DNA of 64,000 bases from Candidatus Omnitrophota bacterium (GTDB taxonomy: Bacteria > Omnitrophota > Gorgyraeia > 2-01-FULL-45-10). Position 1 is the stretch's first letter. Each line of letters opens with the position of its first letter. A program made the position numbers and the translations under genes. The notes beneath the pieces are model-generated. The model saw only the letters and a program-made list of their open reading frames with translations, made no database searches and was not told the DNA's origin. The stretch spans positions 40,047 to 104,046 of the forward strand of contig JAQUSB010000001.1 of the NCBI GenBank assembly GCA_028715345.1. The letters run 5' to 3'. Positions 8,204-17,187 of this stretch are shown one piece after another.

Positions 8204-8672
8204 TCAGATCCAGTTTTTCCAGTATTTTTTTATTGAATTCCTGCGCGTCGGGCGCGCCTTCGGCGGGTGCCCACGGCGCGAAGTGTTTGTCGGCCTTTTC
8301 GTCATACGGCCCGTCTTTAACCTCATAAAGGACAGAGCCGGGTTTCAGCGTAATAAAGGTATGCCATTTGCCCGGCGGTATCTCGACGGCTCTTACGCCG
8401 TGCGCAGGATCGAGGACTGCATGGTCTATGACGTTCCCATTGTCGTCAAATTCCACGACCACGACGCTGCCGTTCAGGATAATGAAGACTTCGTTCTTGT
8501 CGGGATTTTCGTGTTTGTGAGGTTGTATATATGTCCCGGGCTCGGCGGCGTTCAGGAGGCGCTGTACCACGTCATCGTAATTTTTGTGGAAATTGTAGTT
8601 CGTCCTCTTCCTGGGCGAGGCCTTCGCTTTGTCCGAAACCGTTCTTATAAGCTCTTCGGTCAATTTTATCAT
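8196..8672 (-). CDS. cupin-fold protein (WbuC-like)
   Basis: ATG at 8672 (MIKLTEEL...) lies just downstream of the tRNA. The longer track ORF reads through the tRNA exon and is rejected. Cupin His motif PHKHENPDKNEVFIILNG. Confidence 0.5.
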   Translation of the reverse strand: MIKLTEELIRTVSDKAKASPRKRTNYNFHKNYDDVVQRLLNAAEPGTYIQPHKHENPDKNEVFIILNGSVVVVEFDDNGNVIDHAVLDPAHGVRAVEIPPGKWHTFITLKPGSVLYEVKDGPYDEKADKHFAPWAPAEGAPDAQEFNKKILEKLDLNE

Positions 8673-8726
8673 ACAGGTCAAATTTGGCGTCCCTGGCCTG
8701 ATTCGAACAGGCGACCCTCTGCTTAG

Positions 8727-9208
8727 CTTACCGCACTGGATTACTCCAGCCAATGTTACGTTGCGGTCTGGACTATGTCTTCGCCATTTCAGGCGTGCAG
8801 CGTATAGTCTCTGAGGACTCCCATCCAAGCTTCAGATAATCATCGGCCCATTTTACGTGAAGGTTTTGATTATTTATGGTTTTCTCAAAACGTATTGCCT
8901 TCAGCGATGCATATTTAACTTGCAATTTAAATACATCGCCTGTTTTTGAGATAGCCACTACATCATACGGCTGATGCTCGGATAACGGAATGCATGGGAC
9001 ATAGCCCTTAACGGCTAAATCACCTATAACCTTTGCTACTCCGATATCTGCTTTTTCCTTCGTATGATGCAACCTTCACCTCCTTTCATTGGACCGAATT
9101 ACCTGTAGCTTTTATGGTTGCCTGCAAATTGCCCTGTATATGACAGGGGTTCCTTGCATACAGCCGCATCCATTCTATGCGTTTTATTCCGCATAGAAGC
9201 TCCCATTG
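8727..9208 (-). ncRNA. group I self-splicing intron inserted after U34 of tRNA-Arg(UCU)
   Basis: Intron follows an exonic U and ends in G. A 4-bp P1 (CUU|C with GGAG) has U.G at the splice site. P2 hairpin UCUAUGCG/CGCAUAGA. P7/R-like CAGAGACUAUA and S-like AAGACAUAGUCC elements, plus a P8 hairpin CGCC-UGAAAU-GGCG. Confidence 0.7.
8773..9072 (-). CDS. intron-encoded protein, putative PD-(D/E)XK-type homing endonuclease
   Basis: 99 codons with TTG start preceded by an in-frame TGA and a strong SD (AAAGGAGGTGAAGG). It lies inside the intron and its 3' end overlaps P7/P8. Motifs E...PYDVVAIS...FKLQVKY fit a D...(E/Q)xK nuclease core. Confidence 0.5.
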   Translation of the reverse strand: MHHTKEKADIGVAKVIGDLAVKGYVPCIPLSEHQPYDVVAISKTGDVFKLQVKYASLKAIRFEKTINNQNLHVKWADDYLKLGWESSETIRCTPEMAKT

Positions 9209-9263
9209 AAGGCAGATGCTCTATCCAGCTGAGCTACAGGGACGCACAAAATCTAAAATGAAC

Positions 9264-9340
9264 TGGTCGGGGCGGACAGATTCGAACTGTCGACTTCTTG
9301 GTCCCAAACCAAGCGCGCTAGCCAGCTGCGCTACGCCCCG
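9264..9340 (-). tRNA. tRNA-Pro (anticodon UGG)
   Basis: Reverse complement CGGGGCGTAGCGCAGCTGGCTAGCGCGCTTGGTTTGGGACCAAGAAGTCGACAGTTCGAATCTGTCCGCCCCGACCA. Anticodon loop TTTGGGA with G37 and CCA encoded. Confidence 0.85.
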
Positions 9341-9342
9341 TA

Positions 9343-9936
9343 TTATAAATACTTTTTCAAAAATTCGCGAACTTTTTTCAGCGCCTTCGAGCGGTGGCTC
9401 ATCCTATCTTTTACTTTAAGGCCGAGTTCGCCGAACGTTTCTTTGTATTTCGGTATAAGGAACAACGGGTCGTATCCGAAGCCGTATCCGCCCTTTTCGG
9501 AAAACGCTATCACCCCGGCACAGGACTCTTCCAGCACTTTCACTATCTTGCCGTTGTCGCATATCGCGACCGCGCATACGAATTTCGCCTGCCTTTTCGC
9601 GGGCGGGACATCAGCCAGGAGCTTCAGCAGTTTCTTATTATTCTGCTTGTCGCTCTTTCCCGATCCCGCAAATCTCGAAGACTTTACCCCGGGGGCGCCT
9701 CCTAAAGCTTTCACGACGAGCCCGGAATCATCGCCTACAGCAAGCCCGCCGGTAAATTTCGACACCGTCAGCGCTTTTTTGATCGCGTTGGCTTTAAAAG
9801 TCTTGCCATTCTCCACGATGCGCGGAGTATGTTTGAATTCTTTCAGCGAAACTACCCTGGCGCTTATCCCTTTAAGATACCGCCTGAGCTCATAGAGTTT
9901 TTTGTCGTTCTTTGTGGCTATAACAAGTTGGCGCAT
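9343..9936 (-). CDS. rdgB: non-canonical purine NTP pyrophosphatase (RdgB/HAM1 family)
   Basis: 197 aa with GFGYDPLF and SEKGGYGFGYDP motifs characteristic of dITP/XTP pyrophosphatases. Confidence 0.85.
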   Translation of the reverse strand: MRQLVIATKNDKKLYELRRYLKGISARVVSLKEFKHTPRIVENGKTFKANAIKKALTVSKFTGGLAVGDDSGLVVKALGGAPGVKSSRFAGSGKSDKQNNKKLLKLLADVPPAKRQAKFVCAVAICDNGKIVKVLEESCAGVIAFSEKGGYGFGYDPLFLIPKYKETFGELGLKVKDRMSHRSKALKKVREFLKKYL

Positions 9937-16771: not shown

Positions 16772-17187
16772 GGGGGTGAAAGGTTTCGACCCAGATGAGC
16801 AAAGTATAAGCAGCATGTAGAGGTTGCTAGGAGGCCTCTTTAAACACCTGGCAAAAAATCAAATGCTGAAAACGTAAAAGTTCCAGCAACGGTGAACGAA
16901 CTCCTAAGCACCATGCAAGTGGTGCCGGGGCCAGTTCTACCGGTAGCGTTACCTTTATAAGGTAACCCGCCAACCGGTCCTTCTCCTGCGGGGGCCGGAT
17001 TGACGACACACAGCAGGATGGCCCGGATCTTTTAGCCTTTGGAGGCCCGGGCGAGACTGACAAAGGATACCTCTTTGAAATTCCGCCTGTTGAAGTTCAC
17101 TGGGGGAAATCAAAGATCAGGCTAAACATGTAGCGGCTTATTCTTTGACGTTCGGGGACGCGGGTTCAATTCCCGCCACCTCCACCA
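16772..17187 (+). ncRNA. ssrA: tmRNA (transfer-messenger RNA, ssrA)
   Basis: 5' end is GGGGGUGAAAGGUUUCGAC. 3' end is GGACGCGGGUUCAAUUCCCGCCACCUCCACCA, a T-arm with acceptor 3' strand and encoded CCA. The acceptor pairs GGGGGUG with CACCUCC and carries the G3.U identity pair. It lies immediately downstream of smpB. Confidence 0.85.

Follow-up and report, generated by a model that had tools for sequence, protein, structure and literature searches.

A shortened PD-(D/E)XK endonuclease gene, probably in decay, within the group I intron of an Omnitrophota tRNA-Arg(UCU) gene

Introduction

Does a 99-codon open reading frame (ORF) lying on the minus strand of a Candidatus Omnitrophota contig still encode a homing endonuclease, or is it what remains of one? 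[quoted passage not shown] Enzymes and introns of this kind are documented in other bacteria: I-Ssp6803I is a tetrameric PD-(D/E)xK homing endonuclease of cyanobacteria (PMC3384342), tRNA-Arg-TCT introns have been reported in Beggiatoaceae (PMC4853749), and Williams 2020 (bioRxiv 10.1101/2020.01.27.920355) raises the number of bacterial tRNA group I intron classes from 4 to 21 and indicates that genes, whole or partial, may be contained in introns longer than about 400 bp. A literature search combining Omnitrophica and group I intron found nothing.

Results

A split tRNA-Arg(UCU) gene

Standard Aragorn calls no tRNA at the locus, and the genome thereby seems to be devoid of an AGA decoder; when introns are allowed, the program recovers a tRNA-Arg(tct) (window 8685..9243) that is split by an intron of 482 nt between anticodon positions 34 and 35. 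Given that group I introns are preceded by U and end in G, the intron is bounded at 9208 and 8727, the 5' exon ending at 9209 and the 3' exon starting at 8726 (CUU/c...aag/CUAAGCAGA; Table 1). Joining of the exons yields a cloverleaf with the anticodon UCU, the U(-1) and the final G are both found at the boundaries, and these boundaries are identical in about 37 relatives. The ORF is thus located inside the intron, as had been proposed. Elsewhere in the window, Aragorn places a tmRNA at 16772-17187 (+), the tag of which is unusually long, with 31 residues (AENVKVPATVNELLSTMQVVPGPVLPVALPL).

No other tRNA-Arg(UCU) gene was detected by Aragorn with introns in the 1.6-Mb, 65-contig assembly, which may be incomplete, so that a second copy is possible; the other tRNA-Arg genes of the assembly carry the anticodons ACG, CCG, CCU, and UCG. 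As the only gene detected for this tRNA in the assembly, the split gene should be needed for the reading of AGA, and its intron must presumably still splice.

Relatives of the ORF were collected at 44 loci from species-representative genomes, mostly labelled Omnitrophota. As Aragorn with introns picked up the split tRNA at a few of these loci only, the exon motifs were used, and L003, L022, and L023 were excluded because the exon pattern had mis-set their 3' boundary. In about 40 of the 44 loci, the same tRNA-Arg 5' exon precedes the ORF by about 150 nt, and the 3' exon CUAAGC... follows the intron-terminal G in about 40 related loci, the pair formed by a gene of the 152-aa type and its intron being widespread in MAGs mostly labelled Omnitrophota. 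One locus (L021:1376-1390) has a 5' exon ending in CUGCCAU rather than CUGCCUU, which puts an A at tRNA position 33, almost universally U, and reflects either an error or else an unusual tRNA.

As regards the genomic neighbourhood, a tRNA-Pro(UGG) gene (window 9264-9340, minus strand) stands about 20 nt upstream of the split gene; it is also found upstream, at a variable distance of about 20-210 nt, in L001, L006, L015, L022, L031, and L037, while a tRNA-His gene often lies downstream. This conserved neighbourhood suggests a mostly vertical inheritance of the intron-bearing gene. Homologues were also seen in other settings. In a MAG labelled Pseudomonadota (L040:1501-2100), a PDDEXK_5 homologue is free-standing just upstream of a tRNA gene behind which, after ...CGCCCUU, group I-like sequence is found, in a displaced-endonuclease arrangement. 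A partial homologue (L043:646-816; residues 1-58, 45% identity) sits between a tRNA-Cys and a second tRNA-Ser gene in a dense tRNA array, on a contig labelled Nanoarchaeia that may be mis-binned or belong to a mobile element.

Table 1. Features of the split tRNA-Arg(UCU) gene, its intron and the ORF, in window positions
Feature	Position	Strand	Basis
tRNA-Arg(UCU) 5' exon, ending at U34 (CUU/)	9209..9243	-	Aragorn with introns; sequence
Group I intron, 482 nt, after U(-1), terminal omega-G (8727)	8727..9208	-	Weak Rfam match; covariation
P2 hairpin (UUCUAUGCG / CGCAUAGAA)	9173..9198	-	RNAalifold, compensatory changes at most pairs
P3, UGCGGC with GCUGCA	9163..9168 with 8801..8796	-	Covariation, 37 introns
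P4 (UGCAA/UUGCA) around P5 (CCCUGU/ACAGGG)	9123..9158	-	Covariation; MFE fold
Long-range helix, 5' strand, just upstream of the Shine-Dalgarno sequence	9091..9111	-	MFE fold
Shine-Dalgarno sequence AAAGGAGGTGA	9076..9086	-	Sequence
99-codon ORF, PF11645-family gene in which codons 58-110 of the 152-codon form are missing	8773..9072	-	Pfam; homologue alignment
Deletion junction (CT/GAAG; TGAAG, codons L57/K58)	8899..8903	-	DNA alignment with L001; bridging contigs
Long-range helix, 3' strand, ORF codons ~75-82 (WADDYLKL), full-length codons 128-135	8827..8849	-	
Core P7-P3'-P8-P7'	8771..8809	-	Rfam R/S alignment; P8 covariation; third-position identity
Core parts P7; P3'; P8; P7'	8809..8804; 8801..8796; 8795..8782; 8776..8771	-	
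P9 (ACCGCA/UGCGGU) with inner hairpin CUGGA-GUAA-UCCAG	8730..8767	-	Compensatory changes
tRNA-Arg(UCU) 3' exon (CUAAGCAGA...CCA)	8685..8726	-	Aragorn with introns; exon motifs

Architecture of the ribozyme

The Rfam model RF00028 (Intron_gpI) matches the intron weakly, with 19.5 bits (E=0.024) for a gathering score of 50; the R and S core elements of the intron align to the model, and the match is interrupted by the 300-nt ORF. According to Williams 2020, the model contains no bacterial seed sequences. The core helices were followed by covariation in 34 related introns for P2, P4, P5, P8, P9, and the inner P9 hairpin, and in 37 introns for P3, and compensatory changes were found in P2, P4, P5, P8, P9, P9a, and P3. 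More precisely, P3, which joins both halves of the intron, exists in five paired variants, four of them Watson-Crick (UGUGGC/GCCACA, UGCAGC/GCUGCA, UGCGGC/GCCGCA, and UAUGGC/GCCAUA) and the fifth being the G.U form of the window (UGCGGC/GCUGCA), with compensatory changes at three positions. P7 (GACUAU/AUAGUC) is invariant among the relatives, so that covariation neither supports nor contradicts it. P2, P3, P4/P5, P8, and P9 are all present in the minimum free energy (MFE) structure predicted for the window intron (z = -7.8). When RNAalifold was run on the separate intron halves, the pairings UGCCU (exon)/AGGCA and AGCC/GGCU emerged among invariant stretches; they are regarded as artefacts of fragment folding, since AGCC/GGCU conflicts with the covarying P3.

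Translation signals and C-terminal tail of the ORF

The reading frame is present on the minus strand with the peptide, the strong Shine-Dalgarno sequence, the TTG start, and the upstream in-frame TGA that the earlier note had read in the sequence: GGAGG ends 6 nt ahead of the TTG (9072..9070), the TGA is found at 9078..9076, and the GAAAGGAGGUG motif recurs upstream of the ORF in most relatives. With a Pfam match above the cut-off and 228 homologues, it is more than a chance ORF.

The overlap of its 3' end with P7 and P8, noticed from the start, is real: the last 16 codons and the TAG stop (8775..8773) run through J6/7, P7, P3', and P8 into P7', the last 13 codons overlapping the core. The tail starts at 8820, its peptide (window 8773-8820, minus strand) reading W-ESSETIRCTPEMAKT. 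Third-codon-position identity amounts to 0.92 in this tail versus 0.42 in codons 1-136, and several relatives stop at codon 137 or switch frame there (L001, L005, L008, L011, L031, L039, L041, L033, L034, and L038 were examined). Besides, the tail is disordered in the full-length AlphaFold2 model, and distant family members match profile positions ~2-135 only. Taken together, these results show the tail to be read-through of the ribozyme core, lying outside the enzyme, and the high conservation of its "protein" sequence is conservation of the RNA.

Membership of the PD-(D/E)XK family

The Pfam search that had been put forward as a check confirms the assignment to the PD-(D/E)XK family: PF11645 (PDDEXK_5) is matched with E=4.9e-13 and 49.7 bits, for a cut-off of 26.1, and a profile of the relatives retrieves I-Ssp6803I (2OST) with E=2e-5, collinearly over positions 1-104. 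The Pfam match covers ORF residues 2-78 and profile positions 1-80 of 138, and therefore falls short of the complete domain of about 135 residues. The spacing PYD...QVK, in which a nuclease core had been recognised, holds as well, since PYD37 and Q51-V-K53 align with SYD and QVK of 2OST. D9, D37, and Q51-V-K53 are all kept in the window protein, are invariant in 55 relatives, and stand opposite D, D, and QVK of 2OST; D9 in helix 1, D37 at the start of strand 2, and Q51-x-K53 in strand 3 are presumably the catalytic residues.

A profile was needed for this result, as phmmer, run with the 99-aa sequence alone on the PDB sequences, gave nothing meaningful. In NCBIfam, no family was found for the window protein or three relatives, and PHROGs returned an unnamed family only. 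Among the 120 homologues listed out of the 228 found, nearly all are 151-154 aa long, several bear the NCBI name 'group I intron-associated PD-(D/E)XK endonuclease', and the window's own protein is the sole one of 99 aa. When 1.84 billion cluster representatives were searched with a profile, 3215 relatives were found at E<=0.001, matched over profile positions ~2-135; the family is therefore large, and the full domain is conserved across it.

The full-length relative P0002 was modelled by AlphaFold2 with a pLDDT of 80.8, and the top PDB hit of this model is 2OST (E=2.3e-9, TM 0.67-0.70, 25% identity), ahead of SPARDA nuclease domains, archaeal Hjc resolvases, and restriction enzymes. By comparison, the model of the 99-aa window protein has a pLDDT of 53.5, with values below 50 for residues 55-99, and is disordered from residue 55 on, it being understood that the alignments were 55 rows deep for P0002 and 11 for the window protein, so that the two confidences are not strictly comparable and their contrast is indicative only.

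An in-frame deletion of 159 nt

An alignment comprising ten relatives gives the window protein 95% identity to P0002 outside one clean gap, at columns 58-110. The loss comprises exactly residues 58-110, that is 53 residues or 159 nt, in frame, from the middle third of the 152-aa form; in the DNA alignment, the 482-nt intron of the window likewise equals the 641-nt intron of L001 minus exactly 159 nt. The designation as a candidate homing endonuclease thus stands for the family and fails for the completeness of the protein, 53 residues being absent from its middle, which points to a decayed gene. In L001, AAG is found at both ends of the missing segment, giving a microhomology of 3-4 nt at the junction, the pattern of a microhomology-mediated deletion. 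Five of the nine beta-strands predicted in the P0002 model (62-64, 68-73, 76-81, 89-94, and 99-104) are all within the deletion; helix 1 and strands 1-3, which bear the motif residues, remain in the window copy.

The junction was checked on Logan contigs of four runs covering window 8500-9400. It is bridged with 0 differences and 0 gaps in the runs X1 (landfill, 8697-9237), X3 (wastewater, 8500-9058), and X5 (anaerobic digester, 8591-9011), which come from three studies, one of which may be the source sample, the other two being independent. Because contigs of three separate studies bridge the junction unchanged, the deletion is not an artefact of assembly.

Three intron size classes coexist in the landfill run X1. 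In addition to the 482-nt form of the window (depth 3.4), a 631-nt contig (depth 10.5) has 483 nt where the window has 323, hence about 160 nt more, and a 391-nt contig (depth 4.9) has 76 nt in place of 295 (window 8767-9237 region) and represents a nearly ORF-less relative. The 631-nt contig differs at 9/94 and 3/54 flanking bases and for that reason comes from another strain or species; it is probably the full-length relative encoding P0002, a protein whose single contig has the same length of 631 nt. A joint 8726/9210 with one letter between, together with loose ends at 9208, was also seen in X1 and was attributed to intron-less tRNA-Arg genes of other organisms rather than to an allele of this organism.

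Among the relatives, introns with an intact ORF measure 629-782 nt, and other copies are damaged in various ways: L029 has a stop codon at the position of Q51, the 367-nt intron of L044 keeps codons 2-29 and 126-152 in different frames, P0138 (residues 1-37 and 92-135) and P0220 (1-23 and 102-152) carry other in-frame internal deletions, and the N-terminus of P0121 is scrambled. As the end-points all differ, these decay events are independent.

A long-range helix closes the ORF loop

The ORF had been placed between P6 and P7, which is roughly right; more exactly, its body forms a loop, closed by a long-range helix with which the P6 region is extended. The layout typical of homing endonucleases, with the gene in a peripheral loop of the tRNA-borne group I intron, had also been correctly recognised. 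In 36 loci, the cognate strands of this helix pair at a mean of -22.2 kcal/mol versus -14.3 for non-cognate strands, the cognate strand ranking first or second in 22 of them, and the helix covaries across these loci. It was further observed that the coding strand stays fixed while the upstream strand changes to match it. Since this helix closes it, the segment comprising the Shine-Dalgarno sequence and about the first 125 codons of the full-length gene is a loop, and since the deleted stretch is wholly within that loop, the ribozyme core is left intact in the window copy. The DNA-level deletions of the window and of L044 both leave the long-range helix and the core unharmed.

Constraint and mosaic ancestry

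The nearest full-length relative with DNA available is L001, against which the ORF was compared (window 8821-9072, minus strand, versus L001:1501-1911). Over codons 1-57, 33 of 171 nt differ, with a dS of 1.62, a dN of 0.058, and an omega of 0.035, the synonymous sites being saturated; this low omega indicates that the protein has been under strong constraint over most of the divergence. Over codons 111-136, only 4 of 78 nt differ (dS 0.07), and the break in identity coincides with the deletion junction. A general RNA-level constraint on codons 111-136 was considered and rejected, their third-position identity of 0.42 being that of the rest of the ORF; the low dS is specific to the window/L001 pair. 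Because no general RNA constraint explains this segment, what lies left of the junction and what lies right of it differ in their history with respect to L001, a mosaic pattern that is compatible with recombination between intron alleles.

Discussion

The ORF is, with good probability, a decaying homing-endonuclease gene in the intron of a tRNA-Arg(UCU) gene. The starting state would have been a 152-codon PD-(D/E)XK gene of the I-Ssp6803I type in a peripheral loop of the group I intron, from which a deletion of the microhomology type has removed codons 58-110 in the lineage of the window. With an intron that has gone to fixation in an essential tRNA gene, no empty sites to invade would be left for the endonuclease, and its gene may erode wherever the ribozyme tolerates the loss. 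The nuclease activity has most likely been lost, and the 99-aa product, if translated, is predicted from the models to be unfolded and inactive. Counting against decay, the deletion is in frame, the Shine-Dalgarno sequence and the start codon are intact, and none of the invariant residues in the retained parts has changed, all of which would also be expected of a short protein that is still selected. Nevertheless, a deletion falls in frame by chance one time in three, and this one may be recent.

The same intact signals bear on the two readings in which the short protein still has a function. That it would be a still-active, minimised homing endonuclease could be argued from the conservation of D9, D37, Q51, and K53, of the Shine-Dalgarno sequence and start codon, from the reading frame, and from the occurrence of the identical allele in three studies; yet five of the nine predicted strands are absent, disorder sets in after residue 55 in its own model, no other of the 120 listed homologues is 99 aa long, the full domain (profile ~2-135) is conserved in 3215 cluster representatives, and I-Ssp6803I works as a tetramer (PMC3384342), for which the N-terminal third is not enough, which makes an active mini-enzyme highly improbable. 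Retention of the protein for a non-nuclease role, such as binding of the intron RNA or target DNA, or interference with a co-resident full-length enzyme, would also account for the intact translation signals and the frame, and finds some echo in the close relative, apparently with a full-length gene, of run X1 and in the in-frame deletion forms P0138 and P0220. However, the end-points vary (58-110, 38-91, 24-101, 30-125), so that the copies have no conserved short form in common, some of them are out of frame or carry a nonsense codon, and the protein database over-samples in-frame forms, the only ones called as one ORF; such a role is accordingly improbable.

The possibility that the 159-nt gap arose in assembly or binning, the full-length gene being really present, deserves mention in that the window stems from a metagenome-type assembly and a longer relative is present in run X1. 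This is hardly credible, given that separately assembled contigs of X1, X3, and X5 span the junction without a difference or gap, and that the longer X1 contig, by its flanking differences, belongs to another strain or species. Finally, the identity break at the junction raises the prospect that the 99-codon allele is a recombinant of two intron alleles, for instance through aborted or imprecise homing or gene conversion, with a short protein that might also be kept for a non-nuclease role; this is rather unlikely, and if true, the recombinant allele would attest, in a natural setting, that co-resident uncultured bacteria are still exchanging introns.

For the preferred reading of a decaying endonuclease gene, the importance of the locus is little beyond correct annotation: the ORF is to be labelled as the remnant of a truncated group I intron-associated PD-(D/E)XK endonuclease, and the tRNA-Arg(UCU) gene as intron-split. 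Both the protein family and the fact that it is housed in group I introns of bacterial tRNA genes are textbook knowledge, and this class of intron and endonuclease is already annotated; the window copy represents an ordinary late stage of homing-endonuclease decay, which adds a documented deletion and no new kind. Together, the copies of this intron family, whether intact, ended by a nonsense codon, deleted in part, or almost devoid of the ORF, form a natural decay series in an essential bacterial tRNA gene, which could help to define the dispensable parts of the intron.

According to the life cycle said to have been described by Goddard and Burt in 1999, homing-endonuclease genes pass through invasion, fixation, degeneration, and loss. 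The present intron family is in the same line, as it comprises copies that are intact, interrupted by a nonsense codon, partially deleted in frame, and almost completely deleted; it differs in that the host gene is an apparently single-copy essential tRNA gene, from which the intron cannot be lost imprecisely. Among characterised enzymes, I-Ssp6803I (2OST), from the tRNA-fMet intron of Synechocystis, belongs to the same family by Pfam and profile and, for the full-length relatives, by fold. [quoted passage not shown] With the other introns of tRNA-Arg(UCU) at position 34/35, the window intron shares the tRNA, the insertion point (CUU/c...g/CUAA), the U(-1), and the omega-G; following the naming rule of Williams 2020, it would be an 'Arg.3Ug' intron, and in comparison with these introns, the window copy is a form of intermediate size in which the ORF is partly deleted.
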